Shown piece after piece: positions 1 to 57,221 of a stretch of DNA of 64,000 nucleotides; positions within the stretch are counted from its first letter, which is position 1, and each line of letters starts with the position of its first letter. The position numbers and the translations under genes are program-made. The notes under the pieces are model-generated. The model saw only the letters and a list, made by a program, of their open reading frames with translations. It did no database searches and had not been told where the DNA came from. This DNA is from Candidatus Omnitrophota bacterium (lineage in GTDB: Bacteria > Omnitrophota > Gorgyraeia > 2-01-FULL-45-10), in NCBI GenBank assembly GCA_028699255.1, contig JAQVUX010000008.1, positions 3,715 to 67,714 of the forward strand, written 5' to 3'.

Positions 1-3000
1 TGCCTATCGCGTTATCGTAGCCATAACCTATCGCCATAGAAGCAAAGGATGAGACCGCCGAGGTAAGAAAAGTGTTCCAACCACAGGCGTCGCCTGCAAT
101 GACTATGCTCTTCGACACAGCCGTCTGGATGAGCCCTTTGCATACAGCGTTCCAATAATTTTCCGCGGTAGTCGCCGATTTCCCGGCATTGATGAGATTA
201 CTGAAAATACCCTGCACAGATTCGGGAAGTAATTTTTTTGCGGCGGCGAAAAGATTATCAAAGAAATGGTTCATTTGCAAAATATCTAACCCTATCGAAA
301 CACCGAAATTGACCCAACTAAATGTACCGTTTGCCATCGACATTATCGCGTCAAACACCGTGGCCAGGATACTGCCAACCCCCTGAAAGCCCGGGATGAC
401 ATTGATCGCCTGGAGAAATACGTCTACTATCGACTGGAACCAACTGCCAAACGAATCCCAGAAGCCCGACTCCACGTCCATGTTGACATATTCATTTTTC
501 GTCTGGGAGGTCTGCGCGCCGTATTTATCGTAGTCCGTCCATGTCTCACTGTGCTGGTGCACGGTAATGGTGGAGTCCTTGCCCTGGCTCTCGCTGTATG
601 AATAGTCGTAGTAGTAATGATTTTGCGAAGTAAGGAGATTCCCGATAGAGTCATATGTATAAAGATTTTCACTGTAACCGTTTTCGATCGCGGTGTAATT
701 TTCTACAAGTTGTCCTAAGCCGTTATAACGCGAGCTGTCCACATGCGAAATCGCACCGTCGATCGTGGTCGTGTAACTGCACTGCCGGCCGTTTGAGTCA
801 TACTGGATACCGTTGGTTATAGTGGTCTTGGCGGACAGCGTATTGCCGCTCGAATCTTTGGTCGTGACTATATCTTTTTCGTACAGGATGAGGCTATCGG
901 TATTATAATACGTGGCCGTCCGCTGGGTGGTAATCTCGCGCCATTCCAGCGCGGAGCCGGAGGAGATATCGACGAGCCCGGTATCGGTCTCGGTGAAAGT
1001 CTTGATCCTGCCCGAGGCGTCGTAAGTCCCGTCGGTAGTAACTTTATGAGTGGTTATGCTGGTTACGTCGGTACGCGTCGTAGGAACCGTAATATCCTCC
1101 GTCCAGCCGGTAAGATTACCTTTGGCATCGTAAGTCATGTCGTATCGCACTGTCGCAGTGGTGACATCGATGGCGGCGGAGGTAGAAGAGTCGGTGCCGT
1201 AGGTGCGCGTTATTTCGGTGTAGCCGATTATCCTGCCGTAATCGTCGTAGGCCACGTTACTGAAAACGCTGTCGGTGATCTCATCCGGGGCGGAAGAGCT
1301 GACGGATACATCCTCGTATCCTGTGAGAATGCCGCCTTCGTACACCATATTCGAGCGCGTGGTAGTTACCGTAAAGTCGAGAGTACCGTCGGAGCTTACG
1401 GTATGCGCGACCTCGGTGTAGCCGGTAACTTTATTCGCCGTGTAGCCTGTGGCCGTCCAGGTCGTGGTGGTGGTAACGGTGCCCTCGCCGGTGTCGCCCC
1501 AGTAGCCGCTCCAGGCACACTCACTATCGACCTTTGTATATTGCAGTATGTTATTTTTTTCGTCGTAAACGTAATCCGATGTCTGGCTCGTCTTGTGGAC
1601 AAGATTGACTGCGGTGTAGTCGTCGGAAACGGCCTGCATTTCGTACATGTAATGATAGATGTCTTCGTTACCGCCTCCGGCGCCGTCGTCCACCCTCTTG
1701 GCCTGACCGTAGAGTCTTACCTGTATCTGAGTAACACCCGTCCAGCCGGCAGAGTCAGTAACAACAGTATTATTCTGCGAGTAACCGCCGGACCAGTCGC
1801 CGCCGCCGGAGCCGAATTCATCGGCCAAGACGGTTGTTCCGCTATCCGAAGTTATGGTTATATATACGCCCCACGCTCCGGAGTTATTAGAGGCGCCCGA
1901 CCATGTCTGGGCGAAACAGTACAAAAGCCATGACAATGATACTATGTCCTGGGGCGTCGTGAACGTCCATGTCCAGTAGGTATAGTTGCCGTTATAGTAA
2001 TATCCGGAGCCGCCTCTTTCTCTGTAGTAATATCCACTGTAGGTATCCAGGTCCCCGTCGCATGCGTTCGAAGCCGAAGTGCTAAGACTGCTGACATACG
2101 AATTCACTGTAAGGATGGTGGACGAGCAGACATCGGTCACCTGCTCATACTGGTAGTCGTCCTCACTCGTTTCGGTTGTAGCGACGCGCCCTTCCTCGTC
2201 GTAAGTCGCCGCCCACGTCGTGCTGTAGATTACGGCTTCGGCGGCGCCGAATATGTTCATGTCGTCCGATGAAAGGCTCGAATATCCCCCGGCGGAAAAG
2301 ATATCGATATACGCGGAGATATTCTGCGAAAGCGCGGCAGTGCCGTCGAAGAGACTGTAGGAAGCGGCCTCACACCTTATATCGGTGGAATAGACCGCGT
2401 GTCCGTCCGAATCGTAGGAACATGTCCATTTCGACACGTAACTACGCTCGTCGGCCTTGTGATAATACGTGACTATCGAGACCGGCTTTTCGTTTTCATC
2501 GTATCCTTCCACGCTATCGACTACGACGGCAATCGAGTCCTCGTAATACTCCTTATGCACAGACACCGTCAAGACATTACCGTCGGAAGTGTAAGTGTAG
2601 GAATACGTCTCAAGCCGCGTCGCTACGCCGGTAGAATCGGTCTCCTCTACGAGGACGCGCCGGCAATCCGCGTCATAGGTAAACTCCGCGGACGAGCCGT
2701 CGGAGAGGTTGGACACTGAAACGCTCAAGGCCCCGTCGGAAGAGTCTGTGTAGGCTATCGCCGCTATCGTATTACCGGAGCCATCCTGTAGCTCCGAGAA
2801 CCTGTTGTCCGAATAAATGAATACGTTGCCTTTGGCGTCGGTGATTTTTGCAACCTCGCCCTCGGCATTATATTCTATCGACGTCGCGCCGGATAGGTTT
2901 ATGTCCTGATAAGCCTCGCTCGCCTCAAGCACACTTATGATGTCGTTGAAATAATCCGCCGCGGAGGCCGAACCGGACCTTGAGCCGGCGGCCTCGTCCT

Positions 3001-6000
3001 CACCGCCGGATAAACTGCCGGAACCAATTAAGGCTTGGTAGCTTTCGGAATATTCGAAATATATGAGCCGGTTATCGGTGTCGTAGATAGCGGTGTAGTC
3101 GCCGTTTGTCACGACGGTGGTCTCAACTTCGCCTTTCGTATTATATTTATACGTGCGCAGGGAATAATTTTCGCCGAAAAATATCGTATCGTCACCGGAG
3201 GCCACCTTGTCCTCGATAATTTTGTCCTTGTCGTAAACGATGTCATAAACGGTCGATATGCTTATGGCGGAATCGTCCGACGTGGTAAGCGTATAGCTTT
3301 TCATGCGGCCGCGGCTATCGTAAACTATGCCGCTCTGTTTGGAATAATCGCCCGTCCGGACAAGGTTTTCGTCGAGCTCCCAGGTGGTTATCGCGCAAGC
3401 GTTATCGCCTGAATAATCGTCGAGAGTTACCTCCTTGTACGTGGTATCCTCGTTTGGGACTACCGTTATCACATTGTACGAGGCGAGGTGCTCGTCGGAG
3501 TCGTAAATGTAGTTTTCCTGTGTCGTGACCTCGCCTGTCCGGTCATACGCGAGCGTAGCATCATTCCAGACTACGACACTACGCACCATACGATTATAAC
3601 GGCCGTCGGAGTCGAAGTCCGAAAATGCCACCTCCGTCGTCCGGGAGAGCGTACCGGAAGAAGCGTCCCACGCCCATTCACCACCGGGCGTGTATATCGC
3701 CTCGATATATCCCGTATTCCGGCCTTCGGAGTCGTAGGTAAAATCCGTCCTCGCGTAATAGTCCCACTCGGCGGTATCTTCCCCGGCATACTGGCAGGTC
3801 GTGCCCTCCATGTAGCAAATCTCTTCATGGCCCCTCGCGCCGGAATATTCGGCCATGCAGTTTTGAGTCAGTCCTGTCACATCGGATGAGCCTTCCGCGC
3901 CGTCAAAGTAGGTATACGATTTGGCAAGCGTCCACCCGGCGCCGTATTCATATATAACGGTAGACTCGATCTGCGCCACGGAGGAATCGGAAGCGGTGGT
4001 ATGGGCTTGCGAAAAAAACATAACCTCGGCGCCTTTCAAGCCTTCATAATACGCAATATTCACAAGCTCGCCCGTCTGGTCATGCGTCTTCGCCGCGGTA
4101 AGCGCGTCCTGGACAAACGCATCCGGCGCGCGTAAATTATCAGGGCCGTAATAATAATATACTGTCGACTTCACCGCGCCGTCGTCATAATAATTTACCG
4201 TGTAATCGCTTATTTCAAAACCGGCGAGCCCCGCGAAATATGTTTCGGAAAGTTTTGTTGCGCCGAGCGAATCGTATGTTATTGTTTCCGCCAAAGCGCC
4301 GGATAAAGAATAAACGTAATTTGTTATACTATCGACGGCGCCGTTATAATAATTCGTGCAGGTGTCGGCTTTCTCTTCTCCTGACAGGCCTTTGTAAATC
4401 GTTTCGGATGTGATGTTGCCGTCGGAATCCGTGGCGATGGTAAGTAATAGGCTCCCTGTAACGCCATCGTAAGTATACGAGGTAATAGTATCAAGATATG
4501 GACTACCGTCGGGATCGACGCTATAGCTTGTTGTGAAAATTATTTTTTCGCTTCCCGATAGGCCGGAATATTCGCCTACCGATGTTACAAATCCTAAAGA
4601 GTCTTTCGTTATTGTTCCGGTTATAGCGCCGGATGTAGCGTAGGTATAGGTTGTGACACCAACGATGTTATAATTCTCGTCGAAGGTGGCAACGCTTGTT
4701 AATTTTTCGCATCCCGAGAGGCCTGAATAAGCCGATTCGGATGTAACAATGCCGCTCGAATTACTCATTACAGTTTTAGTTAACGCGCCCGAAACGTCAT
4801 AAGAATAGATTGTGGCGGTTAATATATCCCCGAGTTTATCAAGGGTGGTGGAGCTTGCGATCTTTTCTTCGCCCGAAAGTCCGGAATACGCAGATACGGA
4901 TGCGACGACATCCTCAGAGTCAACCGTAACGGTCAATACAAGAGCGCCGGACCCGTCGTACGAATAGGTTGTGACCGTTAAAGCATTACCTGCGTCGTCA
5001 AAAGTTGTGACTGCGGAAGCTTTCTCGTATCCCGATAGGCCTGAATACACGGATTCGGATGTAATAACGCCGCTCGAATTTTTAGTTACGGTTTTAGTCA
5101 AAGCGCCCGATGCGTTGTAAGAGTAATTTGTCATCGAAAGCATATCGCCGGACTTATCATAAGAGGTAGCCGACAATGCCTTCTCGTAGCCCGTAGGGCC
5201 CGAATATGTGGATTCGGATGTAATTATACCGTCGGGATCGGTCGTAACAGTCAGGATAAGCGCGCCGGAGAGGTCGTAAGTGTAATCTGTTTGGGTTAAA
5301 ACATTATAGAGCTTATCGAAAGTTGTTACGGATGAAATTTTTTCTTCGCCGGTTAATCCTGTATAAAGAGTTTCGGAGGTAATTATGCCTTGCGAATCGC
5401 GCGTTACAGTCCCGGCAAGAGCGCCGGAGGCTGTATAAGAGTAGTTTGTAACTGTAAGAGCATTATGAAGCTTATCAAAAGTCGTCGACGACGTTATCTT
5501 CTCCTCGCCGGAAAGGCCGGAGTATGTGGATTCGGATATAATGATACCGTCGGGGTCAGTAGTTACTGTGCCCGCAAGAGCGCCGTAGGCATCGTAGGAA
5601 TAACTTGTCGTCGAGAGGGCATTTTCCAGTTTATCAAAAGTAGTAACGCCCGATACTTTCTCTCCCCCTTCGCGGCCGGTATAAACAGAACTTGAAGTAA
5701 TAATGTCATCCGCGTCTTTAGTTATAGTAGCTATCAGGGCGCCGGAGGCGTCGTAAGTATAAGCAGTGACCGATACAATATCATGAGATTTATCGAACGA
5801 TATCGTGGATGTGATTTTTTCGAATCCAGAGAGTCCGGAATATACAGACTCGGACGTAACTACACCGTCGGAATCAACCGTAGCGGTCGAGGCTAATTCT
5901 CCGGAGGCGTCATAAATGTAGCTGGTCGCAGTAACGACGGTGCCGGAATTGTCAAAGGTTGTAACCGTAGAAATTTTTTCATATCCTGATAGCCCCGAGT

Positions 6001-9000
6001 ATGCGGATTCGCATTTAATCATACCCGTCGAATCACTCGTTATTGTTTTCGATAAAGCACCGGCGTCATCATAGGAGTAGATCGTAGTAGTTAGAACATT
6101 GTCGGAAGCGTCATATGTTATGATGGACGATACTTTTTCCTCACCCGAAAGTCCGGCATATAAACTCCTGGAGGTAATAACTCCGTCGGAATCGCAGGCT
6201 ACAATCGACGCAAGAGCGCCGGAGGCGGCGTAAGAATAAGCTGTGGTAGTTAATATGCTACCGAGATTATCAAAAGTTGTTGAGCTTACGATCTTCTCCT
6301 CACCTGATAGGCCTGAATAAACGGATTCAGATGTAGTAACACCGCCGGAATCGGTCGTAACGGTCAGAGTTAATGCGCCTGAAGCGTCGTAAGCATAGTT
6401 TGTAATAGTGAGGATATTGCCGGTTGCGTCAAAAGCCGTAACTGTAGAGGCCTTCTCTTCTCCCGACAGCCCTGAGTAAACCGTTTCGGATGTAATGACG
6501 CCACCCGAATCTTCTGTTACCGTTTTTATCAGCGCGCCGAAGGAATTGTAAGAATAACTCGTCGTCGCAAGAACATTGCCCGTTTTGTCAAAAGTAGTAA
6601 CAGACGCTATATTCTCCTGATTCTCAAGGCCGGAGTAAGACGTCGCGGAAATAACAACGCCGGTCGAATCGGTAGCCGTAGCAAGTGTAAACGCCCCGGC
6701 TACATTATATGTATAGGAGGTGGTCGTTAAAACATTATGCGATTTATCGTATGAAATTACCGACGAGATTTTTTCATAACCCGAAAGGCCTGAATAAACT
6801 GATTCAGATATGATTATACCGTCGGAATTATTCGTGGCTGTCGATATAAGAGCTCCTGAGATATCGTAAGAGTAGGTTGCAATCGTTAAAATATTGCCCG
6901 ATTTATCGTATGCCTTTACAGTAGAAACCTTCTCCTCGCCCGATAGCCCTGAATAAACTGTTTCGGACGTAACAACACCGGATGAATCTTTCGTTATATT
7001 TTTTGTCAGCGCGCCGGAGGCATCGTAAGAGTAATTTGTAATCGTAAGAATGTTATGGTTATCGTCGTATACGGCAACATATGAGATTTTCTCATAACCG
7101 GATAAGCCCAGATAGATCGTCTCGGATAAAATTGTGTCGGCAACATCAGAAGTTACTGTTTTCGCGATAGCGCCGGATGCGTCATAAGAGTAAGTTGTGA
7201 TTGTAAGAGTGTCGTGCAATTTGTCAAAAATGGTAACGCTTACCACTTTTTCCTCGCCCGATAGCCCTGAATAAACGGATTCGGACGTAACTACACCCGA
7301 GCCATCGGTAGCGGCGGTTTTTGTCAGGGCGCCGGAGGCGTTGTAAGTATAATTTGTAATTGCAAGCGCCACTCCGGATTTATCGAATGTTGCAATCGTA
7401 GAAATTTTTTCGGCGCCGGAGGGGCCCGAATATACAACTTGCGATGTAATTACATCATTTGAATCGCAAGTTACAGTCGAGCAAAGAGCTCCGGAAGAGC
7501 CATAAGAGTAAGACGTCGCTGTAAGAATAACGCCAAGGCTGTCGAAAGTAGTGATGGTCGAGACATTCTCGTAGCCGGATAATCCTGAATAAATAGTCAC
7601 GGACGTAACGATGCCATCGCTATTTTTTGTGATCGTCGACTCAATAGCGCCGGACGAGGCGTAAGAATAAGTTGTGATCGCGAGAATACTGCCTGACTTA
7701 TCGTATGTTGTTGCGGTGGAGATTTTCTCTTCGCTCGACAGGCCGAAGTATGTAGATTCGGATATAATAATACCGTCGGAGTCAGTAGTTACGGTGCCCG
7801 CAAGAGCGCCGGAGGCCGCATAAGAGTAAGCCGTAGCGGTTAACACATTCCCGTTTTTATCAAAAGTCGCGGAAGAAATTATTTTCTCCGCACCCGAGAG
7901 GCCCGAATAAACGGTTTCGGAAAGCTTTATGCCATCGGCGTCAACCGTTATTGTGTTTATCAGGGCGCCGGACGAGGCGTATGAGTAACTCGTGGTTGTA
8001 AGAATAGCGCCGAGCTTATCAAGCGTCGTTACCGCAGAGACTTTCTCGTAGCCTGAAAGGCCCGAATAAACGGTTTCGGAAAGCTTTATGCCATCGGCGT
8101 CAGCCGTTATTGTGTTTATCAGGGCGCCGGACGAGGCGTATGAGTAAGCCGTAGCCGTAAGAATATTTCCGGACTTGTCGAATGTCGTAACCTGCGATAT
8201 CTTCTCCCGGTTTTCCAGGCCGGAATAAGAGGCTTCGGACGTAATTACGCCGCTTGAATCGCAAGTTACCGTCGATGTAAGAGCGCCTGAGAATGCGTAA
8301 ACATAATTTGTCTTTGTAAGAATTGTACCGGATTTATCGTACGATGTAACTACAGATACCTTCTCCTCGCCCAAAAGACCGGAATAAGCCGATTCGGATG
8401 TAACGATACTATCCGCATCGCAGGTTACTGTATTGGCAAGCGCGCCGGAGGCCGTATAAATATAATTTGTGACGGCAAGGATATTGCCGGATTTATCGTA
8501 ACTCGTGACTGTGGACGTTTTTTCATAATCCGAAAGGCCTGAGTATGTTGTTTCGGAAGTTTTTATACCGTCGGCATCGCGTGTTATTGTCGAATCAAGC
8601 GCGCCGGAGGCGTCATAAGAGTAGCCCGTTGTGGTAAGTATACCGCCGATATGATCAAAAGTAATAACGCTTAATACTTTCTCGCACCCCGAGAGGCCTG
8701 AATAGACAGATTCAGACACGATAACACCGCCTGAATCTTTTGTAACCGTTGACAAAAGAGCGCCGGAGGCGTCATAAGAGTAACTTGTGATGGTGAGAAT
8801 ATTACCGGTTTTATCGTAAGTGGTGGTTAAAGATATCTTTTCCTGACTTTCCAGGCCTGAGTAATCTGTTTCGGAAGAAACTATACCGCTCGAATCGCAA
8901 GTTACTGCTTCAGTCAAAACGCCGGATACGCCATAGAAATAACTTGTGACGGTAAGAATAGTGCCGAGCTTATCGAGCGTTGTTACCGTGGAGACTTTTT

Positions 9001-11599
9001 CCCTGCTCGATAATCCTGAATAAACCGACTCGGATGTAATAATACCGTTCGCATCATAAGTCACGGTCGAGTAAAGAGCGCCGGACGAGGCGTAATCATA
9101 TTTTGTCAGCGCGAGAATGTTACCCGTTTTATCATATGTAGTAACACTCGCTACCTTCTCGTCCTCTTTACGGCCCGAATATGACGTCTCGGACGTGATT
9201 ACGCCGTCTGCGTCTATAGTTACGGTAGATTCCAACGCCCCCGCCGCGTTATAGGAATAATTCGTTACCGAAATAACATTGCCAATCTTATCAAAATTGA
9301 TGGCCGACGCGATTTTCTCGTAACCCGATAGGCCGGAGTAGAAAGATATGGCCGTAATTATACCATCGGGATCGGCCGTCATCGTACTGGTAAGGGCTCC
9401 GGATACGTCATAAAGATAACTTATTATCGTCAATACGTTTTGCGACTTATCGAAACTTACGGCATACGAGATTTTCTCATAACCGGCAGGGCCGGCATAA
9501 TAAGTCTCGGACGAAACCGCGCCGAAGGAGTCGTAAATTACGGTCGAAGTGATAGTTCCGGCAATATTGTAATTATAGAATGTGGTTGTGAGGATAGCCC
9601 CCGCAAGATCGTACGCTGTGATGGATATAGCTTTTTCACAGCCCGACCTTCCATCATATGTAGTCTCGGACGTCTTTATACAGTCGGTGTTATATATAAC
9701 GGTTGTCTCGAGATTATTTGCTATTCCATAACTATAATACGAGATCGTAAGAATATCGCCTGAGAGATCAAAGCTTGTTACATTTGTTATCTTCTCCTGC
9801 CCTTCGGAACCTGAATATACGCTAAGGGATATCTTCACGCCATTTGGATCAAATGTCATTACAGTACCGAGAGAGCCGTTAGCATTATATTGGTATGCGG
9901 TCGTGGTAAGAATATTGCCTGAGAGATCGTAGCTGGTACCGCCGGAGGCTTTTTCATAGCCTTTATTGCCTATGTATAGCGTATTCGAAACGAGTACACC
10001 TTTTGCAGTATCATATCCTATATTCGAGTCTAATAGACGGTATGTATCGGTCTCGGTAAGGGCATTATTCACATATTTATAATCTGTGCGGACGGTAATG
10101 GCTCCAGCCGTAATATCAAACGTAAAGGTATGCGTTTTTAGCTCTTTACCTTCAGAGCCTTTATAAAAAGTTACCCCTTCCACCACAGCGCCTGTCAAGT
10201 CATAAGGATCGCTCGTCCCAACATATGCCGTAATCTTATCGAGGGTGCGCTTATTACCGTCTCCCCCTATCGCCGAATTATCGGCGTCTACGGCTAAATC
10301 ATAATTATAAACGCTTACGCTCGCTATGGTCGCGCCATCGGGCGCGTAATCATAAGAAAGCGTTATTACCTCATAATCTTTCAAACCAGTATACTCAGCG
10401 CACTGGCTTAAAACATAAGCGCCTTCCTTTATATAATAAGTAGCGGTCTTTTCGAGATGGCCATCGGTATTATAGATATAGCTTGTCTGGTATGCGGCCT
10501 TATAACTATTTGTGGACGTATCAAGATAATACGATGTCAAAACACTGTCTACTACTTCATGGCCTTTTGCGCCTGTATAGTTTGTTTTAGAAATTAGGTA
10601 TTGGTCGCAGGATTCGGAATTAGCTCTAAGATCTGTAAGACTGTCGGAAAGCGTCAAACCTTTTATGTTATACGCTCTCGTCTGACTTATGGCGTCGTCG
10701 CTGTTATAATCGTAGCAATCGATCCTTCCCGCGACACCATCGGCATAGTCACTTAAGGCGTAAGCTTCCTTCTCCTCACCTGACGAGCCTTCATATATGG
10801 CCTTTGAAACTAAAGAACCGCCGGTAGACAAATCGCCCTTCCATGCGTTAGAACCCGATGCTTCAAAGTCTATCGTCACAGCCGTTATATCGTAGGTATT
10901 TACTTCCGCAAGAGCCGAGGATGAGCCATATTCATAGATAGAGACAGATTCAGGCGTTCCGTCGACATAATCGGATAATATATATTCGATTTTTGCACTG
11001 CCCGATGAGCCGGAATACACAATAGTTTTTACTTTGAGCGAATCGGATAACTGGGTATAGTCGCCTGCCGTGTAACTTGCCATAACTAAGCTTTCGCCGT
11101 CTTCGCTCACCTTCTCAAGGCTCGAATTAGCCCACGACGCTTCCGCAAAATCACGGATGTCATACGAGGCTATCTTCGATAGGGCGCCTCCGGAAGTATA
11201 TGTATAGACGTATATCTGTTGCGGCTTGCCACTGGGGTCATAATCGGTAAGAGTGTACGCGACCTGTTTGCCGGAAACCGCGGCCGAGCTCGAGCGTTTC
11301 TTCTGCAATACCAGTGACTCGCTCTGGACGGGCTGTTGGCTCTGGATGGTGTAATTGGATTGGGTCTCGACTAAGTTTTTCTGGCTTATGACCGCCTCGT
11401 GCCTGGCCTGCGCATAAACAAGATAGGCGGGCGCAATATAATTTTGGGATTTTTGAGAATTGTCGGGAAGAAGAGATTTGGATGCGGAATATTTGTATTT
11501 GTATGAGAATGTGTCGGCGGCGAACGCAATCTGATCCCACATAAAAGTAAAGGATAGGATCAAGCACATAGCTCTGAATAAAATATTTTTATTATTCAT
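1..11599 (-). CDS. Giant secreted YD/RHS-repeat family protein, N-terminal >3860 aa; C-terminus lies beyond window start (partial)
   Basis: Only open minus frame from window edge to ~11599. The other two minus frames hit stops at 4-6 and 12-14, and no track ORF falls in this frame, which fits one ORF lacking an in-window stop. N-terminus MNNKNILFRAMCLILSFTFMWDQIAFA/ADTF is a Sec signal peptide. Hand translation gives repeated YxYDxxGxL motifs (YTYDLSGAL, YSYDASGAL, YDEEGRVATTE, YDAKGNLTGWTE, YDSNGRQ). Start coordinate is uncertain by 1 nt. Confidence 0.65.
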   Translation of the reverse strand, partial: MNNKNILFRAMCLILSFTFMWDQIAFAADTFSYKYKYSASKSLLPDNSQKSQNYIAPAYLVYAQARHEAVISQKNLVETQSNYTIQSQQPVQSESLVLQKKRSSSAAVSGKQVAYTLTDYDPSGKPQQIYVYTYTSGGALSKIASYDIRDFAEASWANSSLEKVSEDGESLVMASYTAGDYTQLSDSLKVKTIVYSGSSGSAKIEYILSDYVDGTPESVSIYEYGSSSALAEVNTYDITAVTIDFEASGSNAWKGDLSTGGSLVSKAIYEGSSGEEKEAYALSDYADGVAGRIDCYDYNSDDAISQTRAYNIKGLTLSDSLTDLRANSESCDQYLISKTNYTGAKGHEVVDSVLTSYYLDTSTNSYKAAYQTSYIYNTDGHLEKTATYYIKEGAYVLSQCAEYTGLKDYEVITLSYDYAPDGATIASVSVYNYDLAVDADNSAIGGDGNKRTLDKITAYVGTSDPYDLTGAVVEGVTFYKGSEGKELKTHTFTFDITAGAITVRTDYKYVNNALTETDTYRLLDSNIGYDTAKGVLVSNTLYIGNKGYEKASGGTSYDLSGNILTTTAYQYNANGSLGTVMTFDPNGVKISLSVYSGSEGQEKITNVTSFDLSGDILTISYYSYGIANNLETTVIYNTDCIKTSETTYDGRSGCEKAISITAYDLAGAILTTTFYNYNIAGTITSTVIYDSFGAVSSETYYAGPAGYEKISYAVSFDKSQNVLTIISYLYDVSGALTSTMTADPDGIITAISFYSGLSGYEKIASAINFDKIGNVISVTNYSYNAAGALESTVTIDADGVITSETSYSGRKEDEKVASVTTYDKTGNILALTKYDYASSGALYSTVTYDANGIITSESVYSGLSSREKVSTVTTLDKLGTILTVTSYFYGVSGVLTEAVTCDSSGIVSSETDYSGLESQEKISLTTTYDKTGNILTITSYSYDASGALLSTVTKDSGGVIVSESVYSGLSGCEKVLSVITFDHIGGILTTTGYSYDASGALDSTITRDADGIKTSETTYSGLSDYEKTSTVTSYDKSGNILAVTNYIYTASGALANTVTCDADSIVTSESAYSGLLGEEKVSVVTSYDKSGTILTKTNYVYAFSGALTSTVTCDSSGVITSEASYSGLENREKISQVTTFDKSGNILTATAYSYASSGALINTITADADGIKLSETVYSGLSGYEKVSAVTTLDKLGAILTTTSYSYASSGALINTITVDADGIKLSETVYSGLSGAEKIISSATFDKNGNVLTATAYSYAASGALAGTVTTDSDGIIISESTYFGLSSEEKISTATTYDKSGSILAITTYSYASSGAIESTITKNSDGIVTSVTIYSGLSGYENVSTITTFDSLGVILTATSYSYGSSGALCSTVTCDSNDVITSQVVYSGPSGAEKISTIATFDKSGVALAITNYTYNASGALTKTAATDGSGVVTSESVYSGLSGEEKVVSVTIFDKLHDTLTITTYSYDASGAIAKTVTSDVADTILSETIYLGLSGYEKISYVAVYDDNHNILTITNYSYDASGALTKNITKDSSGVVTSETVYSGLSGEEKVSTVKAYDKSGNILTIATYSYDISGALISTATNNSDGIIISESVYSGLSGYEKISSVISYDKSHNVLTTTSYTYNVAGAFTLATATDSTGVVISATSYSGLENQENIASVTTFDKTGNVLATTSYSYNSFGALIKTVTEDSGGVITSETVYSGLSGEEKASTVTAFDATGNILTITNYAYDASGALTLTVTTDSGGVTTSESVYSGLSGEEKIVSSTTFDNLGSILTTTAYSYAASGALASIVACDSDGVITSRSLYAGLSGEEKVSSIITYDASDNVLTTTIYSYDDAGALSKTITSDSTGMIKCESAYSGLSGYEKISTVTTFDNSGTVVTATSYIYDASGELASTATVDSDGVVTSESVYSGLSGFEKITSTISFDKSHDIVSVTAYTYDASGALIATITKDADDIITSSSVYTGREGGEKVSGVTTFDKLENALSTTSYSYDAYGALAGTVTTDPDGIIISESTYSGLSGEEKITSSTTFDKLHNALTVTNYSYTASGALAGTVTRDSQGIITSETLYTGLTGEEKISSVTTFDKLYNVLTQTDYTYDLSGALILTVTTDPDGIITSESTYSGPTGYEKALSATSYDKSGDMLSMTNYSYNASGALTKTVTKNSSGVITSESVYSGLSGYEKASAVTTFDDAGNALTVTTYSYDGSGALVLTVTVDSEDVVASVSAYSGLSGEEKIASSTTLDKLGDILTATIYSYDVSGALTKTVMSNSSGIVTSESAYSGLSGCEKLTSVATFDENYNIVGVTTYTYATSGAITGTITKDSLGFVTSVGEYSGLSGSEKIIFTTSYSVDPDGSPYLDTITSYTYDGVTGSLLLTIATDSDGNITSETIYKGLSGEEKADTCTNYYNGAVDSITNYVYSLSGALAETITYDSLGATKLSETYFAGLAGFEISDYTVNYYDDGAVKSTVYYYYGPDNLRAPDAFVQDALTAAKTHDQTGELVNIAYYEGLKGAEVMFFSQAHTTASDSSVAQIESTVIYEYGAGWTLAKSYTYFDGAEGSSDVTGLTQNCMAEYSGARGHEEICYMEGTTCQYAGEDTAEWDYYARTDFTYDSEGRNTGYIEAIYTPGGEWAWDASSGTLSRTTEVAFSDFDSDGRYNRMVRSVVVWNDATLAYDRTGEVTTQENYIYDSDEHLASYNVITVVPNEDTTYKEVTLDDYSGDNACAITTWELDENLVRTGDYSKQSGIVYDSRGRMKSYTLTTSDDSAISISTVYDIVYDKDKIIEDKVASGDDTIFFGENYSLRTYKYNTKGEVETTVVTNGDYTAIYDTDNRLIYFEYSESYQALIGSGSLSGGEDEAAGSRSGSASAADYFNDIISVLEASEAYQDINLSGATSIEYNAEGEVAKITDAKGNVFIYSDNRFSELQDGSGNTIAAIAYTDSSDGALSVSVSNLSDGSSAEFTYDADCRRVLVEETDSTGVATRLETYSYTYTSDGNVLTVSVHKEYYEDSIAVVVDSVEGYDENEKPVSIVTYYHKADERSYVSKWTCSYDSDGHAVYSTDIRCEAASYSLFDGTAALSQNISAYIDIFSAGGYSSLSSDDMNIFGAAEAVIYSTTWAATYDEEGRVATTETSEDDYQYEQVTDVCSSTILTVNSYVSSLSTSASNACDGDLDTYSGYYYRERGGSGYYYNGNYTYWTWTFTTPQDIVSLSWLLYCFAQTWSGASNNSGAWGVYITITSDSGTTVLADEFGSGGGDWSGGYSQNNTVVTDSAGWTGVTQIQVRLYGQAKRVDDGAGGGNEDIYHYMYEMQAVSDDYTAVNLVHKTSQTSDYVYDEKNNILQYTKVDSECAWSGYWGDTGEGTVTTTTTWTATGYTANKVTGYTEVAHTVSSDGTLDFTVTTTRSNMVYEGGILTGYEDVSVSSSAPDEITDSVFSNVAYDDYGRIIGYTEITRTYGTDSSTSAAIDVTTATVRYDMTYDAKGNLTGWTEDITVPTTRTDVTSITTHKVTTDGTYDASGRIKTFTETDTGLVDISSGSALEWREITTQRTATYYNTDSLILYEKDIVTTKDSSGNTLSAKTTITNGIQYDSNGRQCSYTTTIDGAISHVDSSRYNGLGQLVENYTAIENGYSENLYTYDSIGNLLTSQNHYYYDYSYSESQGKDSTITVHQHSETWTDYDKYGAQTSQTKNEYVNMDVESGFWDSFGSWFQSIVDVFLQAINVIPGFQGVGSILATVFDAIMSMANGTFSWVNFGVSIGLDILQMNHFFDNLFAAAKKLLPESVQGIFSNLINAGKSATTAENYWNAVCKGLIQTAVSKSIVIAGDACGWNTFLTSAVSSFASMAIGYGYDNAIG
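4100..9950 (-). repeat. Intragenic tandem array of ~37 units of ~159 nt (53 aa), diverged at nucleotide level, inside the giant ORF
   Basis: The motif gagcgccggaggc.gt.ataagagta recurs at ~4621, 4780, 4940, 5100, 5260, 5420, 5578, 5735 and onward, every ~159-160 nt. Unit translation is YxY(D/T)ASGALxxTVTxDxxGIITSExxYxGLxGEEKIxSxTTFDKxxNxLTxTx. Confidence 0.8.
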
Positions 11600-12995
11600 G
11601 GGCCGCCTTCTTCCTGATAATAACTCCGTAAATCAAAAATGTAAAGGCCAATATGATAAGGAATAGCTTGGTCAAAATATCGCCGTGCGCCGAATAGAAC
11701 GTCTTTGCCTTTACCTTATATATATCGCCCCGCAAAACCCCCGCTTTGTCCGCAGGGATCTCTTTTATGACTTTACCGAACGGGCTTATCACTTCGGTTA
11801 TACCGGTCTGTGTCACCCGTCCCAGATACCGCATACTCTCGGCCGCGCGAGAACGGGCGAAGAATGTCACATATCGCTTTAGCCAAGAATGATCCAGGTC
11901 GACGTCGCTTAGCATGGTGATAAAATATTCGGCGCCGGAGTTCACATAGGCCCTGAATATCTCCGGGCTGAATTCCTCCCAGCATATGGCAAGGCCTGCG
12001 TTATCTGCATAAAGCTTGGCGCTGAATTGCCCGGGCATGACATGTTTATTAAAAACAAACGGTTTGCACGAATAGTACGTTTCTTTAATATTACCGTCGG
12101 GACCTATAATAAGCGCGCTGTCATAATATGCGCCCTTTCTTACGGGGTCGTTGCGTATGGAGCCTATAATGAAAGTTTTCCCGGATCTCTTCACCTCGTC
12201 GAAAAGAGGCTTTGCCTTATCTGGAAAGCGGGCTATTATATCCGTAGGGAAAGTGTATTCCGGCCAGATCACGATGTCAACGCTGTCGTCCGCCGCCGCG
12301 CTCAACGCGGCATAACGCCTCACCCTGTCGTCGATATTATCTTTATATCCGAAGAACGTCCGTCCCGGTATAGCGCCCTGGACGAGCGCAACTTTCACGA
12401 GTTTTCCCGTCACATGCAGATAGCCGGGATCCTTGATCGTCGAGAATACGAAAGACGCGATAAAAACCACGGCCAGAATGCACGATAAGATGAACGACGA
12501 GCGGCTTTTATCCGCGATGAATTTCGCCGTAGCGGAATTGAATAAAACCACCAGTGCGGTAATCCCTATGGAGCCCGTATACCATATTACCGGAGCGGAT
12601 ACCGGGATCAGGACACCCACATCGAACATCGCCGACAACACCGATTTGAAATTGAAAACATAAAGCATCCCCGTCCATACAAAGCACGGGATAAATACCG
12701 TCGGAAAAGTATTATTAAACTTATGGATTAGAAATACGCTCGCCGCAAAAAACGTGAAAAGAAAGGCCGCAATGATAAAAACACCCATTATATAGATGAA
12801 GGGGTTATATAATATAACCGGCAGAAACGCCAGCATGGCGGATACGCCGGTAACTGTAATAATGGAGCGGGTGCCTGTTTTTTTACGCGCATCGGCGGAA
12901 TAGGCTGTATAAAGAAACGGCACGAGGAAAATAAGCACCGCGTAATTGGAGATCGCGTAAGGACTGACCAGGAATAGGATAGACAGAATGTTCAT
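11592..12995 (-). CDS. lnt: Apolipoprotein N-acyltransferase
   Basis: Multi-TM N-terminus then a CN-hydrolase domain with WPE, K and ICWEE (Glu-Lys-Cys triad) and a final C-terminal TM; 467 aa. The stop overlaps the ATG of the giant downstream gene. Confidence 0.8.
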   Translation of the reverse strand: MNILSILFLVSPYAISNYAVLIFLVPFLYTAYSADARKKTGTRSIITVTGVSAMLAFLPVILYNPFIYIMGVFIIAAFLFTFFAASVFLIHKFNNTFPTVFIPCFVWTGMLYVFNFKSVLSAMFDVGVLIPVSAPVIWYTGSIGITALVVLFNSATAKFIADKSRSSFILSCILAVVFIASFVFSTIKDPGYLHVTGKLVKVALVQGAIPGRTFFGYKDNIDDRVRRYAALSAAADDSVDIVIWPEYTFPTDIIARFPDKAKPLFDEVKRSGKTFIIGSIRNDPVRKGAYYDSALIIGPDGNIKETYYSCKPFVFNKHVMPGQFSAKLYADNAGLAICWEEFSPEIFRAYVNSGAEYFITMLSDVDLDHSWLKRYVTFFARSRAAESMRYLGRVTQTGITEVISPFGKVIKEIPADKAGVLRGDIYKVKAKTFYSAHGDILTKLFLIILAFTFLIYGVIIRKKAAHE

Positions 12996-45065: not shown

Positions 45066-47030
45066 TTATTCATTCGAAATATCCACACTGAAACGCTTAT
45101 CCCCTGGACCCATCATCTTGGGAAATGACGGGAAAGGCGATGCGGCCTTGACTGCATTTATGGCGGCCGTATCGAGTTCCGGGTTCGATGACCTGACGAT
45201 ATCCGGCCCGCCCTTTATCTCGCCCTTTGGCGACAATAGGAAAGTAACCCGCACGCTACCCTTTTTTAAGGTACCGCGTTTTGCCTTCGGGAGGCTCGCA
45301 TTTTGCATTATCAGGCTCTTCAGCGCGTAACCGTAATCCTCCGAAGTAGTTGTTACGAATTTTTTGGCGGCCCAGCCTTTTTCCAATTCAAGCGCAGGCT
45401 GTTTCTTGGTTTTAAACATACCGGGATCTATCGGATATTCATTCCTTCTCTCGAATGTCGGTTTCTCGTTCGTCGTAAATCCTTTTTCATTGATCGGATA
45501 TGTTTCCGGCTGTTCCAAAAGATCGTATTCACCGGTTACTATATGAGGCGTCAAAAATACTACAAGCTCCTGTTTCTGCACTCTATCATTAGTCTTCTGG
45601 AACGCTTTACCTATGATCGGGATATCTCCCAGCACCGGTATCTTGTCAACGGTACTCGTTCTTTCATCTTTTATCAACCCGCCTATTATTATGGTCGTCC
45701 CATCCTTTACCGTAACGGATGTCTCCGCCTGTGTGGTCTGGACTATCGGAACGGTGGTGGAGGGGCTTCCGTAAGTATAATTATCCGTTGACGAACTGAC
45801 TTCCGGCTTTATCTTCATAGTTACGAAACCGTCTTTATTGATGGTTGGCGTCACGTACAATTTTACGCCTATATCGATAAAGGTAAGATTTGTCGCAGTG
45901 GTAGCAAGGCCCGTCGTCTGAGTAACGGTATTTGTGGCGTATGGCTGGGATACACCCACCAGTATCTTCGCCTCCTGATTATTGAGCGCCGTTATCCTCG
46001 GGCTTGATAGCAAGTCAGTATTGCCGATGGTTTTTAATACCTGTATCATCAGCGCCCAGTCGGATTCACCGATGGCACCTATAACTATCTGAGCGCCGGG
46101 GACGAAAGCGCCCTGTACCGCCTGCTGGAACATACTCGATATATTGATACCTTTACTTGCCGAACCGACTTTCTGTATGACAGACGTCCAGTCGACACCA
46201 AGCTTATATTCGTCGGTCAACGTTATCTGCACTATCTTCGCTTCTATTAAAACCTGTTGGAGCTTATCATCAAACGCCGTAACAAGCGCCTCTACCTCCG
46301 ACATTTTTTTATCGAGATCGGTAACGGCTATCTTATTCGTCCGCTCGTCGATCTGCATGGTGCCGATGCCTTTGGTCAGCGATTCCGATACCTTGGCTTT
46401 AAGATCCGCGGCCTTTGCGTATTTGAGCTCAAATACTTTCGTTACCGTCAGCATATCCATCTTGGCCAGTGCTTCCGATATCTGCTCCACCGTCTGCGGT
46501 GAATCGATAACAACTATGGTGTTGGATCCGTCATCCACCACTATCTTGCCTACCTTGGTCTTCATCTGATTCAGCGCTTTCGAAGCGTCACTCGCCTTCG
46601 CGTATTTCAGCTGGAACACTTTGACTTCTTTCCTGTCGCCGTACTTCTCACCGTAGGCCGTCTCATACTCCCTTTGCGACATGACATACACTATGTCGCC
46701 GCGCCTATCGCAGGCCAGGCCGTTGGAGGCGAGTATTATCTCGAGGGCATCCATGATATTGACGCTCTTCAAAAATATAGTAACGCGGCCTTTAACATCG
46801 TTCGAGAGGACCACGTTCATATTGCCTTTCGTCGCGAGCATCTTTATAACCTCCACGACGTCCATGCCTTTCAGGTCGAGCGATATCTTATCGGAAACAG
46901 ACGTTTGGATCATGGGGCCTTTAACCACGGATGGCGTGGACTCCAGCTGGGCATAGGCCGGGCAGATATTGCCGGCGGGCAAAATAGAAGTAAAAGCAAT
47001 CATGGTAATTATCGAAACTATCTTCTTCAT
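45066..47030 (-). CDS. gspD: Secretin (GspD/PilQ family) with C-terminal TonB_C-like domain
   Basis: Signal peptide, N0/N1 repeats (KVFQLKYAKASDASKAL, KVFELKYAKAADLKAKV), secretin core ...DKIPVLGDIPIIGKAFQ...VVFLTPHIV. C-terminal ~130 aa ends GTLKKGSVRVTFLLSPKGEI...SSNPELDTAAINAVKAASPFPSFP, which is TonB-C-like. Confidence 0.8.
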   Translation of the reverse strand: MKKIVSIITMIAFTSILPAGNICPAYAQLESTPSVVKGPMIQTSVSDKISLDLKGMDVVEVIKMLATKGNMNVVLSNDVKGRVTIFLKSVNIMDALEIILASNGLACDRRGDIVYVMSQREYETAYGEKYGDRKEVKVFQLKYAKASDASKALNQMKTKVGKIVVDDGSNTIVVIDSPQTVEQISEALAKMDMLTVTKVFELKYAKAADLKAKVSESLTKGIGTMQIDERTNKIAVTDLDKKMSEVEALVTAFDDKLQQVLIEAKIVQITLTDEYKLGVDWTSVIQKVGSASKGINISSMFQQAVQGAFVPGAQIVIGAIGESDWALMIQVLKTIGNTDLLSSPRITALNNQEAKILVGVSQPYATNTVTQTTGLATTATNLTFIDIGVKLYVTPTINKDGFVTMKIKPEVSSSTDNYTYGSPSTTVPIVQTTQAETSVTVKDGTTIIIGGLIKDERTSTVDKIPVLGDIPIIGKAFQKTNDRVQKQELVVFLTPHIVTGEYDLLEQPETYPINEKGFTTNEKPTFERRNEYPIDPGMFKTKKQPALELEKGWAAKKFVTTTSEDYGYALKSLIMQNASLPKAKRGTLKKGSVRVTFLLSPKGEIKGGPDIVRSSNPELDTAAINAVKAASPFPSFPKMMGPGDKRFSVDISNE

Positions 47031-47071
47031 AAAATCCTCCGTGTTTACGCTAAGCTTCTGGAATTGTTTTT

Positions 47072-47722
47072 TTACAAAAATAATGATATCTTCCGGCCGC
47101 CGTAATCGAGGACAACTTTGCCCTCGGATATCTCCTCGACGACATATCCATTGAAGGACTGGCCCTTATTAAGGTAGTACGTCTTCTGAGCCTTCTTATC
47201 CTCTACGATCGCCTGGGGATTGTCACCGGTTATTATGCCTACAAGCCCGAGCTTCTCGGAGATGCCGTCGGAGGATCCCACCTCTTCCGGAGTTGACGCC
47301 TCGCCGGGTGACTGGCCAAATACCACAGCCCCGCCGCCCGCGGTCGAATACGATGAATAATCCTTAACCACAACCGCCTTCTTGGCAGTGGCTTTCCTTG
47401 TCGATTCAGGAATTGGTTTGGAAATAAGCGCCTGGATGTTTTTATACGGCCTGACGAAGATAAGGTCTATCAATAAATATAAGGCGAGCACGCCAAGCAC
47501 GATAAAGAGGTATTTGTTTAAACTTTTTAGTGTTTGCGGCTCAAAAGCCTTACCTTTGAATATATCGCTTTTCAACATACCGGATATGCGCTCATCCGCC
47601 TTCGACGCTATCGTGGCGGAAGTCTTCGCAATATCCGCCTGCAAAGCGGTCGGGCCATTAGACTTGGCCTTGTTTTTTATGAGTTTTAGCAATCGTTCTT
47701 CCGGAGATACGTCTTTTACCAT
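47072..47722 (-). CDS. GspC/PilP-like inner-membrane secretin-interacting protein
   Basis: Cytoplasmic N-terminus, one TM, C-terminal beta domain GLVGIITGDNPQAIVEDKK...GKVVLDYGGRKISL resembling an HR/PilP domain. Confidence 0.45.
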   Translation of the reverse strand: MVKDVSPEERLLKLIKNKAKSNGPTALQADIAKTSATIASKADERISGMLKSDIFKGKAFEPQTLKSLNKYLFIVLGVLALYLLIDLIFVRPYKNIQALISKPIPESTRKATAKKAVVVKDYSSYSTAGGGAVVFGQSPGEASTPEEVGSSDGISEKLGLVGIITGDNPQAIVEDKKAQKTYYLNKGQSFNGYVVEEISEGKVVLDYGGRKISLFL

Positions 47723-48538
47723 CTATATGCTTTCTCTTTCGATTATCTTCGATATAAGGGTGCTGTCTACCACGGATTTATTGTGCATCACAAGCGCTTC
47801 AAGCGCATTATGGCATATGAGCGATGTCTTCCTCGGATATCCTTCGGTGTATTCGTATATGCTCCTGATCGCTTCATCCGTAAATACCTTCCTGGATCCG
47901 TCGAGGCCCGCCTCGACGAGGCGGAACTCTATAAGTTCTTTCGTCTCTTCTTCGTCTAGAGGATTGATAATATATTTTAGGGCGATGCGATCGTAAAAAT
48001 TCTTCACCTTCTTTATGCGCGGCAAAAGTTCCATCTGCGACACAAGAACTAATTGTAGAAGTTTGTATTCGTTCGTCTCATAATTAAGAAGCGTCCTGAG
48101 TATTTCAAGAAACGGCGTGGACAGCTTCTGCCCTTCATCTATTAATAGCACCACCGTCTTATTCTCATCGACGCCCTTCTTAAAAAGATACTTCTCTATT
48201 TCTTCCCTGTAGTCGAGAGTAGAGCGGGCATCCGGCTTTATACCAAACATCTTGGTAAGGCTTTCTAAGAATTGAAACTCTGATTTATAGGATGGGTCGA
48301 GTATTATGTGGAATGTGTAATCGTCGTCGTTGGCAAACGTCTGCAGAAGCGCGCGCGACATCGTCGTCTTGCCGATGCCCACATCGCCCAGAATAACACT
48401 TAGCCCCCTTTTCAATCTTATTGCTATCTCCAGGCGTTGTATCGCCGTAGAGTGCGCGGACGAACGGTAAAAGAATGCCGGATCCGGGCTTGTCGAAAAA
48501 GGCTCTTTTTTTAGTCCAAGTATTTCGTAGTAACTCAT
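47723..48538 (-). CDS. ExeA/GspA/MshM-like AAA ATPase
   Basis: YYEILGLKKEPFSTSPDPAFFY...GDVGIGKTT matches the ExeA N-terminal ATPase pattern; lacks the periplasmic part. Confidence 0.65.
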   Translation of the reverse strand: MSYYEILGLKKEPFSTSPDPAFFYRSSAHSTAIQRLEIAIRLKRGLSVILGDVGIGKTTMSRALLQTFANDDDYTFHIILDPSYKSEFQFLESLTKMFGIKPDARSTLDYREEIEKYLFKKGVDENKTVVLLIDEGQKLSTPFLEILRTLLNYETNEYKLLQLVLVSQMELLPRIKKVKNFYDRIALKYIINPLDEEETKELIEFRLVEAGLDGSRKVFTDEAIRSIYEYTEGYPRKTSLICHNALEALVMHNKSVVDSTLISKIIERESI

Positions 48539-48774
48539 GCTACTTCTTCCTTAATAATATTCTCTATCTTTTTCAACGACACTTTTTGATGGCGAAGCTC
48601 GATTATCTTCTTCAATTCTTCGAGCGTAGAATCGTCGAAGTACCTGAAATTAGTACCTTCGCTCCTCGATATTTCTTTGATAAGGCCAAGTTTGAGGTAG
48701 TATTTGATAGTATAAACGGATAGCCCTGAAAGGCTGGATAGGTCTTTAATAAGGTATATGTTCTTCTCGCTCAT
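48535..48774 (-). CDS. MerR-family HTH regulator (79 aa, DNA-binding domain only) inside the T2SS operon
   Basis: YLIKDLSSLSGLSVYTIKYYLKLGLI is a MerR wHTH. Palindrome TACTCTC-N6-GAGAGTA at 48803-48822 just upstream. Confidence 0.6.
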   Translation of the reverse strand: MSEKNIYLIKDLSSLSGLSVYTIKYYLKLGLIKEISRSEGTNFRYFDDSTLEELKKIIELRHQKVSLKKIENIIKEEVA

Positions 48775-48867
48775 ATCACTCTCTACTTGGAGAGTAGTAT
48801 ATTACTCTCTGGTTAGAGAGTATAGCATAACGACCTTCTATGTCAACAAAAATCTTCACAATAACGG

Positions 48868-49410
48868 TTATTCTATGATTATCTTGCTGATAATAAAACT
48901 TCCGCGGAGGGCGCCTTCCTGACCCGCTTTTGAGGTCAGTACGAAGTGGCGGACTTTGAGAATGGCTGATTTGGTATTTTCTATATCATATAAAAATTTG
49001 GTAAACTGGCTGAGGCTCCCTTCCGAAGAAAGATCGACCATTATCTCTTTATATTTACCGTGATCTTTAGTACCGACAGGCTTTATATTCAGTATAAGGC
49101 ATGAGTCGGACCGCGATAGATCCTCGAGGTATGATAGAATTTCGGCCGCGGTTTCTTCCTCATTCTTCTCCGACTTAACATATTTGGAAAATTTCGAGTA
49201 GTCCGATTCCAGAGCCTTACGTTCCGCGAGTATGGCCAGATCTTTCTTAAGTGTGACCGCCTTCGACCTCATCTCGAAATTTAAAGCCTGCCATTCCCGC
49301 GCGATGGGCTCGAGGATCAACACATAAAGCGCGGATACGATGACTATGAGCACCGTAGCGTATGCTATCGAACTTTCACGCTTGGACATATTTTTTAAGA
49401 TATGGCGCAT
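48868..49410 (-). CDS. PilO/GspM-like bitopic protein
   Basis: N-terminal TM, coiled coil, C-terminal ferredoxin-like region; operon position after the PilMN fusion. Confidence 0.5.
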   Translation of the reverse strand: MRHILKNMSKRESSIAYATVLIVIVSALYVLILEPIAREWQALNFEMRSKAVTLKKDLAILAERKALESDYSKFSKYVKSEKNEEETAAEILSYLEDLSRSDSCLILNIKPVGTKDHGKYKEIMVDLSSEGSLSQFTKFLYDIENTKSAILKVRHFVLTSKAGQEGALRGSFIISKIIIE

Positions 49411-50810: not shown

Positions 50811-50947
50811 CCGGGGTAATGTTTTGATAGTGTTCCTCCGAACTCTATATTAGAGCAACGGGATTTAGTTGTCAATTCTTTCGATTTCCAAACGTTCCCG
50901 AACCAGGCCTGTAGAAACAGTTTACATGCTCAAGCCTGACCGGGAAA

Positions 50948-53949: not shown

Positions 53950-53963
53950 TTTGCTGTTGCTTT

Positions 53964-55181: not shown

Positions 55182-55199
55182 AAAAACTCCGCTTTCCGG

Positions 55200-56921: not shown

Positions 56922-57170
56922 AATTCTCCCCGTTAGGTCATAATATGTATGATATATAGATTATACTTGCCAATCCCCGCAAAAGCAAGCGACGGATGCC
57001 GCGGGTAACGCTTTTACTATTCGAGCGAACGAGGTGAGCAAACACGGAACTTCCTTGCACGAAAAACCTTTGCCCACCTACGAGGAGAAATCACTTAGAC
57101 AGGTTTCACCTCGTAGGTGATTCCGCCAACCTTACTCCCTCGGTATTTTTTTCACTGCCTACGTTTATTC

Positions 57171-57199: not shown

Positions 57200-57221
57200 C
57201 TATGGCACAAGGGAGGCAGTA

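Follow-up and report, generated by a model that had tools for sequence, protein, structure and literature searches.

The window analysed here is a 64,000-nucleotide stretch of a Candidatus Omnitrophota genome (contig JAQVUX010000008.1, positions 3,715 to 67,714 of the forward strand). At its left end lies a giant gene on the minus strand (2..11599), whose product contains 34 consecutive units of exactly 53 amino acids (aa). Profile homology and predicted local fold place the repeat in the YD/RHS repeat superfamily. The novelty lies in a fixed two-repeat module of 53 aa that is extremely regular, reaches an extreme copy number and has expanded module by module in a family restricted to one phylum. 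As to its role, we lean towards an array that forms an open-ended, YD-derived beta-ribbon acting as a length-setting extracellular stalk. To our knowledge, nearly all YD/RHS repeats described so far form the walls of closed toxin containers or of the teneurin shell. The Omnitrophota, noted for their oversized surface proteins, are a phylum of nanobacteria and are believed to live on other cells or to prey upon them.

The stop-free minus-strand frame carrying the gene extended over window positions 2..11632 (3877 codons, with a Met codon at nt 11599) and was cut by the left window edge. Its product was identical to P0001 (NCBI MDD3906240.1), a 5,104-aa hypothetical protein from a Candidatus Omnitrophota metagenome-assembled genome (MAG). 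The window covers residues 1-3866, and the C-terminal 1,238 aa lie past its left edge.

Periodicity was the clearest property of the array. When the protein was autocorrelated over this region, identity reached 0.50 at lag 53 and likewise at all multiples of 53 up to 371, the background being 0.085 +/- 0.022; repeat detection, which an earlier reading of this DNA made without database searches (the sequence-only reading) had proposed as a check, thus returned a conserved period. Minor peaks of about 0.145 at lags 26, 80, 132 etc. indicated similarity between half-units. When the core array (4499..9904, minus strand; open reading frame aa 577-2378, 1,802 aa) was printed at 53 residues per row, its 34 units of 159 nt each stood in register without any indel. 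Their consensus was xTxYSYxxSGALxxTVTxDSxGxITSESxYSGLSGxEKISxVTTFDKxGNILT, in which Y4, Y6, Y30, G32 and E37 were invariant in all 34 core units.

A hidden Markov model (HMM) of the unit recognised 37 near-full copies. Most of them (34) formed one run with 33 successive 53-aa spacings, followed by two trailing units out of strict register (spacing 57, then 53; 4190..4498, minus strand; 42.1 and 28.0 bits). The remaining one of the 37 was a weak isolated copy located 195 aa upstream of the main run (10343-10486, minus strand, 9.9 bits), a gap also kept in orthologues P0003, P0004, P0005 and P0008. Immediately upstream of the main run, the HMM also detected a significant partial unit (9905-10024, minus strand, 28.9 bits, i-E 5.9e-9), which together with degenerate units and the isolated copy makes up a lead-in to the array (9905..10486, minus strand). 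Significant contiguous copies covered nt 4190-10024. The sequence-only reading had announced about 37 head-to-tail units at 4100-9950, in a register far more regular than that of classical RHS proteins; count, location (on the minus strand) and regularity were all confirmed, and every motif it had quoted was present in the 53-aa consensus.

Units were considerably diverged from each other. Their DNA identity averaged 57% (range 36-79%), which is lower than the 60-75% given by the sequence-only reading, and their amino-acid identity averaged 52%. By codon position, identity between units was 0.63, 0.70 and 0.39 for first, second and third positions, respectively, and at identical residues 0.39 of the third positions were identical, versus 0.265 expected at random. 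These values indicate that the duplications are old and that protein sequence and length are under selection; the protein sequence of the unit is under purifying selection. For Tandem Repeats Finder the DNA divergence between units was too high; the program missed the array and reported only one pair (7899..8192, minus strand, 1.8 copies, 88% identity). This pair, corresponding to the units at aa 1160 and 1213, was the most similar of all (79% DNA and 75% amino-acid identity) and is the sole young duplication in the array. When all array units were compared, identity was flat with respect to separation and thus indicated neither a superhelical repeat nor recent homogenisation. We also rejected a contingency or phase-variation locus, the units being too diverged to recombine.

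Comparison with orthologues revealed how the array grew. The landmark MEGTTC, downstream of the array, occurred at aa 2598 here and at aa 1220 in orthologues P0005 and P0008, a difference of 1378 residues that equals exactly 26 x 53. For 32 of the 37 units the nearest relative was found within the same protein, and the units of P0005 and P0008 corresponded one to one. Taken together, this offset and these within-protein relationships show that about 26 whole modules were added in this lineage, i.e. the array gained whole units relative to its orthologues.

Against 1.84 billion representative proteins, the unit profile matched 175 at E<=1e-3 and 11 at E<=1e-30. Every named strong match came from Omnitrophota, and on the evidence of these profile matches the array family is confined to this phylum. 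Orthologues measured 3,000-4,400 aa and shared a common architecture: signal, N-terminal head, array, conserved post-array region and long C-terminal part. Their arrays displayed the same 53-aa period with occasional spacings of 54-59, and only 9-13 near-full units versus 37 here, so that unit number differs 3-4 fold among orthologues. A scan of genomes with unit patterns gave no match. With the conserved post-array region, six loci were recovered in GTDB species representatives; five of them carried 9-13 near-full units, and in the remaining one (L006), masking of the sequence ahead of the array left only six visible. Three genomes with clear orthologues (L007, L008 and L010) were titled 'uncultured Planctomycetia bacterium', all other carriers being titled Omnitrophota; these titles are probably a labelling issue in automatically binned MAGs.

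The relationship with YD repeats was established at the profile level. Alignments were made from non-overlapping array windows, since overlapping 10-unit windows were mis-registered by MAFFT. Unit positions 2-25 aligned with YD repeats from Pfam RHS_repeat-positive proteins (hhalign probability 97%, E 4.9e-11). Likewise, the first 22-26 positions of the unit profile matched bona fide Pfam RHS_repeat proteins (P0023, E 2e-14, library 1.84e9). In the second half, only tFDkxGNIL aligned, to tYDaNGNLi (hhalign probability 75%), the FDxxGxxL motif being retained. The two halves resembled each other weakly (P 0.005). Judging from these alignments, the module consists of one canonical YD repeat (26 aa) and one strongly modified repeat (27 aa) fixed together. 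Two YD-like halves in a fixed module had also been suggested by the sequence-only reading, and this suggestion stood, for the second half through this single motif.

Curated models behaved differently from these profiles. Pfam PF05593 (RHS_repeat) remained below threshold (12.5 bits and E 0.21 on three units, versus a cut-off of 22) and was not listed for the whole protein, and no NCBIfam YD model, including TIGR01643, matched at E<=1. Neither NCBIfam nor Pfam detected the RHS-associated core with its DPxGL motif; the sequences covered were the part of the protein inside the window, the last 1,300 aa of P0001, and P0002 and P0003 at full length. DP.G[LIVM] was present only in repeat turns and was not conserved in orthologues. 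PVxxxxGE was missing here and was seen once, unconserved, in orthologue P0005. Neither PAAR, VgrG nor TcB-like parts were found by Pfam and NCBIfam. With curated models and the core domain as the definition, the protein falls outside the RHS family. The only family past its cut-off was MORN_2 (PF07661), with 32.9 bits versus 29.6 when summed over the whole protein and no single stretch being significant; on three units its score was 26.3 bits, under the cut-off. The MORN consensus itself was absent, as the unit consensus contained neither GxG...YEGEW nor any Trp, and the period was 53 (halves of 26 and 27 aa) rather than 23. In a PDB sequence search with the repeats, the best match was the Rhs effector RhsP (8h8a), which was marginal (E 0.011).

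A confident structure was predicted for the unit. For six units (318 aa), with five in-register rows from the same array as input, AlphaFold2 (AF2) yielded a predicted local distance difference test score (pLDDT) of 94.2 and a predicted template modelling score (pTM) of 0.78; according to DSSP the model was all-beta, with 24 strands and no helix. Strands of about 8 residues occupied unit positions 51-6, 12-18, 24-31 and 38-45 in every unit (E2-6, 12-18, 24-31, 38-45 and 51-59 in the strand listing of the model). They were separated by turns at positions 7-11 (DASGA), 19-23 (DSDGx), 32-37 (GLSGxE) and 46-50 (DKxGN), i.e. four tight Gly-containing turns per unit, three of which are of the D-x-x-G form. 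The unit is thus confidently predicted as four strands of a continuous up-and-down antiparallel beta-meander. The meander was also observed in a 17-unit model of 901 aa (68 strands, two 3-residue helical turns being the only helix by DSSP), whose global confidence was low.

Foldseek comparisons with the six-unit model placed RHS, Tc and teneurin shells on top (7q97, 8qjd, 7pq5, 8cp6, 4igl and teneurins; probability 1.0, E about 1e-13), with TM-scores of 0.11-0.31 and a root-mean-square deviation (rmsd) above 20 Å. Engineered single-layer OspA sheets were also matched by this model. In a viral library, predicted MORN proteins matched as well as the RHS shells did (E 1e-13, TM 0.2-0.37). The 901-aa model displayed local 3Di alignment along nearly the whole RHS shell (E 8e-33), and it failed to superpose on RHS capsules (TM 0.12-0.17, rmsd 43-49 Å, at low global model confidence). 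In the comparison with RHS shell structures called for by the sequence-only reading, the models did not superpose on them, and these shells were the top Foldseek matches. A parallel beta-solenoid was rejected, both models being antiparallel hairpin meanders by DSSP, with four strands per unit and tight turns; beta-helix structures were absent from the top Foldseek matches of both. Of the two inferred sheet faces, face A was the more conserved (entropy 1.31 versus 1.73 bits) and was 60% hydrophobic, 24% aromatic and 4% charged, the opposite face being rich in Ser and Thr. The net charge of the array was about -3.3 per unit.

We propose that a two-repeat YD-type module was expanded in tandem in this lineage and that the units would join into a single uninterrupted up-and-down ribbon of beta-sheet, with about 148 strands in all. 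Unless supercoiled, such a ribbon could be up to about 65-70 nm long, at 4.4-4.8 Å per strand. It would follow one regular screw, either as an open-ended twisted ribbon or as an open superhelix, its length being set by the number of units, and would serve as the semi-rigid extracellular stalk of a Sec-exported protein. Carried by this stalk, the conserved distal part of the protein, made up of the irregular YD-like region, the beta-rich insert, the hydrophobic segment and the variable C-terminus, would reach from the small Omnitrophota cell toward the surface of a host or prey. An open global geometry, the length, export and a spacer role are what we infer from the observations on the array and its surroundings.

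The main competitor, which we regard as unlikely, is that array and irregular YD-like region form an unusually large closed capsule of RHS or Tc type around a variable C-terminal effector destined for delivery into another cell. It draws on the Foldseek matches of both models to RHS, Tc and teneurin shells (E 1e-13 and 8e-33), on RhsP as best PDB sequence match, and on the C-termini, which differ between orthologues and include weak Ntox10- and Peptidase_C92-like matches and one GHSFG motif. Several of these points count against an open stalk as well: the best solved-structure matches of the predicted models are closed shells, and differing C-termini with weak toxin- or enzyme-like matches correspond to the layout of capsule-type polymorphic toxins. 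Moreover, export and surface location would depend on a signal peptide judged by eye, and the face assignment on an assumed strand register. Yet three lines of indirect reasoning point to an open shape. The 34 core units differ neither in length nor in their invariant residues, from which equivalent environments and hence a single screw operation follow; this disfavours a tapered and plugged capsule, and real RHS-type shells do taper and are plugged (bioRxiv 10.1101/2024.02.26.582050; PMC5851990). The 3-4 fold variation in unit number (and so in strand number) among orthologues, by exactly 26 units in the present case, is hard to fit in a sealed shell of defined volume and fits an open extensible structure better. 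Thirdly, the hallmarks of capsules (RHS core, DPxGL, PVxxxxGE, PAAR, VgrG and TcB-like part) are missing. Further points against the capsule are that superposition on shells failed (TM 0.12-0.17) and that the gene is chromosomal and syntenic, standing beside lnt rather than in a mobile toxin/immunity cassette. The sequence-only reading had envisaged a beta-solenoid or fibre spacer instead of a classic RHS shell; with RHS tests failing and unit number varying by whole modules, the spacer part of this proposal was retained, and the solenoid was replaced by an antiparallel meander.

Rather less probable, in our opinion, is that the array acts mainly as a multivalent binding surface, in which each unit would contact a repeating ligand of the host envelope (glycan or protein) through its conserved, aromatic-rich face or groove, so that avidity would rise with unit number. 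The stronger conservation, aromatic content and near lack of charge of the inferred face A agree with this idea, as do the summed MORN_2 score and the matches of the model to predicted MORN proteins (E 1e-13), and high-affinity binding through the groove is known for MORN proteins (PMC7725318). The GxG...YEGEW consensus and 23-aa period of MORN repeats are absent here, however, and the aromatic face may be mere structural packing. Binding and a stalk role are compatible with each other and not mutually exclusive. More doubtful is a reading in which the 37 modules would wind into an open, hollow, RHS-like single-polypeptide nanotube, comparable to a capsule wall without caps. Its length would be tuned by whole 53-aa modules, and it would serve as a contact-dependent conduit or harpoon shaft reaching, or delivering the C-terminal domain into, a host cell. 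As to a neutral or artefactual expansion (a repeat assembly artefact, or a decaying low-complexity insert without structural role), the source is metagenome-assembled and the protein is labelled partial by NCBI. But units 57% identical at the DNA level are beyond collapse or inflation by an assembler, the frame stays intact across 11.6 kb, conservation is much stronger at first and second codon positions than at third ones, and period and motifs are kept in at least 10 orthologues from independent samples. Divergence, intact frame and evident selection exclude this explanation for practical purposes, and we give it hardly any credence.

The open-ended stalk that we favour shares features with several known systems. 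With RHS/YD shells (Rhs effectors of the type VI secretion system, TcB-TcC of ABC toxins and teneurin) it has in common the homologous motif YxYDxxGxL ... DxxG, a continuous up-and-down antiparallel hairpin sheet with local 3Di similarity along the whole shell, and a giant, probably secreted protein with a variable C-terminus. It differs from them in that two repeat variants are locked in one 53-aa module, present 34 times without indel, and in that its predicted strands are longer (about 13 aa per strand and turn versus about 10.5). Further differences are the sub-threshold YD models, the absence of core/DPxGL autoprotease, plug, PAAR, VgrG and TcB part, the variable unit number (9-37 among orthologues) and the failure of the model to superpose on shells.

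MORN and MORN_2 (YwqK-type) proteins likewise consist of Gly-turn hairpin repeats forming one elongated twisted sheet with an aromatic-lined face, which is predicted here, and the MORN_2 score and Foldseek E-value mentioned above point in the same direction. Nine MORN repeats span about 80 Å as an elongated twisted sheet with an aromatic-lined groove (PMC7725318), so that such a sheet can accommodate a concave face lined with aromatic residues. Dissimilarities concern the period (26/27 aa, 53 per module, versus 23), the lack of GxG and YEGEW, the profile homology to YD instead, and the array length, which is about 4 times that of typical MORN arrays. In its way of working, the giant protein is more like a MORN-type elongated hairpin array.

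Long antiparallel 'beta-helix' tubules were predicted in other Omnitrophota giant proteins and likened by their authors to RHS repeats (West-Roberts et al., bioRxiv 10.1101/2023.11.21.568195). Compared by description only, both cases share the phylum, a long regular antiparallel beta structure in an oversized secreted protein, and a locus related to type II secretion systems (T2SS) or type IV pili (T4P) in the genomic neighbourhood. These tubules occur in proteins of more than 30,000 aa of the Archaeovorin or Dockerin type, with regularly spaced external helices or paired sheets. In contrast, no regularly spaced exterior helices were present in our models, and the protein of 5,104 aa, without marker domains, is part of a separate family of about 3,000-5,100 aa located beside lnt. 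Finally, short regular YD arrays such as those of P0023 (26-aa period) and of DUF4595 'porin-like' proteins are also strictly periodic, and their 26-aa unit aligns with the first half of the 53-aa module. They consist of a single repeat type in fewer than about 10 copies, in small proteins, without alternation with a second variant.

The YD hairpin has apparently been turned here into a crystalline-regular and freely extensible module. If the open geometry is correct, a container fold can become a fibre or a tube, and orthologues with 9, 10, 13 and 37 units would constitute a natural 'ruler' series. If instead the hollow nanotube were correct, it would represent a previously unrecognised kind of YD-derived cell-surface delivery structure, in an ultra-small host-dependent bacterium. 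The module would be attractive for repeat-protein design because it was predicted at a pLDDT of 94 from only five sequences. A unit profile is now also available for a family that, apart from the summed MORN_2 score, had no above-threshold Pfam or NCBIfam match here and is annotated as hypothetical by NCBI.

Upstream of the array, the giant protein starts with a probable Sec signal peptide (11519..11599, minus strand), read by eye as MNNKNILFRAMCLILSFTFMWDQIAFA with cleavage before AD. It displays a basic n-region, a hydrophobic stretch of about 12 residues and an AFA site, and orthologues show a matching layout (e.g. ...FLTWLLIFVFSFNQITFAGD). This signal suggests that the giant protein is Sec-exported and probably located at the surface. 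Lipoprotein identity was rejected, there being no lipobox ahead of a Cys. The signal is followed by an N-terminal head (10535..11209, aa ~130-355, minus strand) with degenerate YD-like elements spaced by about 90-100 aa, in which the unit HMM found weak partial matches only. Its motif Y.L.DYD..G.P....VY.Y...L....SYDI (here VAYTLTDYDPSGKPQQIYVYTY…SYDI) was common to Omnitrophota proteins P0012, P0016, P0017 and P0019; the head was also present in P0014, and the arrays of these five proteins have quite different periods (roughly 55-130 aa). A head shared by proteins with differing array periods indicates a wider phylum-specific superfamily with interchangeable repeat modules.

Downstream of the array, the conserved post-array region (491..4189, minus strand) displayed irregular YD-like motifs (YDSRGRM, YDEEGRV, YDDYGRI, YDAKGNL, YDASGRI, YDSNGRQ and YDSIGNL), the MEGTTC landmark, around which orthologues were 44-51% identical, and a beta-rich insert. 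No Pfam family matched this region at E<=10, and no relative was found for it in the PDB sequence search. The insert (…NACDGDLDTYSG…IYHYMYEMQAV; 1600-2095, aa ~3180-3345, minus strand) lies inside the irregular YD-like region. Its ends resemble those of a discoidin/CBM-type beta-sandwich, and it has a counterpart in orthologues and no Pfam family at E<=10. The YD-like region is followed by a Gly/Ala/Ser-rich hydrophobic stretch (…FWDSFGSWFQSIVDVFLQAINVIPGF…; window 2-490, minus strand, aa ~3715-3877 and beyond) that is conserved in orthologues. About 1,200 aa come after this stretch, and the extreme C-terminus differs between orthologues: sub-threshold matches were recorded to Ntox10 here (E 0.0033, 17.8 bits versus a cut-off of 26.8) and to Peptidase_C92 in P0003 (E 0.0037, 17.8 bits versus 27), and the GHSFG motif occurred in P0002.

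The upstream neighbour of the giant gene is an apolipoprotein N-acyltransferase-like (lnt-like) gene (11592..12995, minus strand; Pfam CN_hydrolase, 1.5e-19), whose end overlaps the giant gene start codon by 8 nt (window 11592-11599). Such a CN_hydrolase gene also neighbours the orthologous giant genes at the P0002 and P0003 loci, and the 8-nt overlap was repeated in L003 and L004 (L003: 6557-8008 / 8001). The kept overlap suggests translational coupling of both genes. No lipobox is present in the giant protein itself. At L005, a 676-aa gene without Pfam matches occupies the place upstream of the giant gene, instead of the lnt-like gene.

At 33-45 kb from the giant gene, a type II secretion/type IV pilus-like cluster was observed (window 45066-58427), including genes for a secretin (45066-47030), a PilM-like protein (49395-50810), a GspF-like protein (53964-55181) and a GspE-like ATPase (55200-56921), all on the minus strand, as well as a SurA-like chaperone (57222-58427) on the plus strand. 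T2SS/T4P-like loci together with a peptidyl-prolyl isomerase were previously described upstream of Omnitrophota giant genes (West-Roberts et al., bioRxiv 10.1101/2023.11.21.568195), and the cluster found here could be the outer-membrane export route of the giant protein.

Further very large genes were encountered within a few kb after the orthologous giant genes in L003 and L001. In L003 (22367-28231) their products measured 1,253 aa and 4,669 aa, without Pfam match, and a ParE/PhD toxin-antitoxin pair was located between them and the giant gene; in L001 (26201-32743), a 2,180-aa gene contained Peptidase_C39. Within the giant gene itself, a 295-aa open reading frame was present on the opposite strand (window 1046-1933, plus strand), which is most likely a by-product of opposite-strand codon composition.

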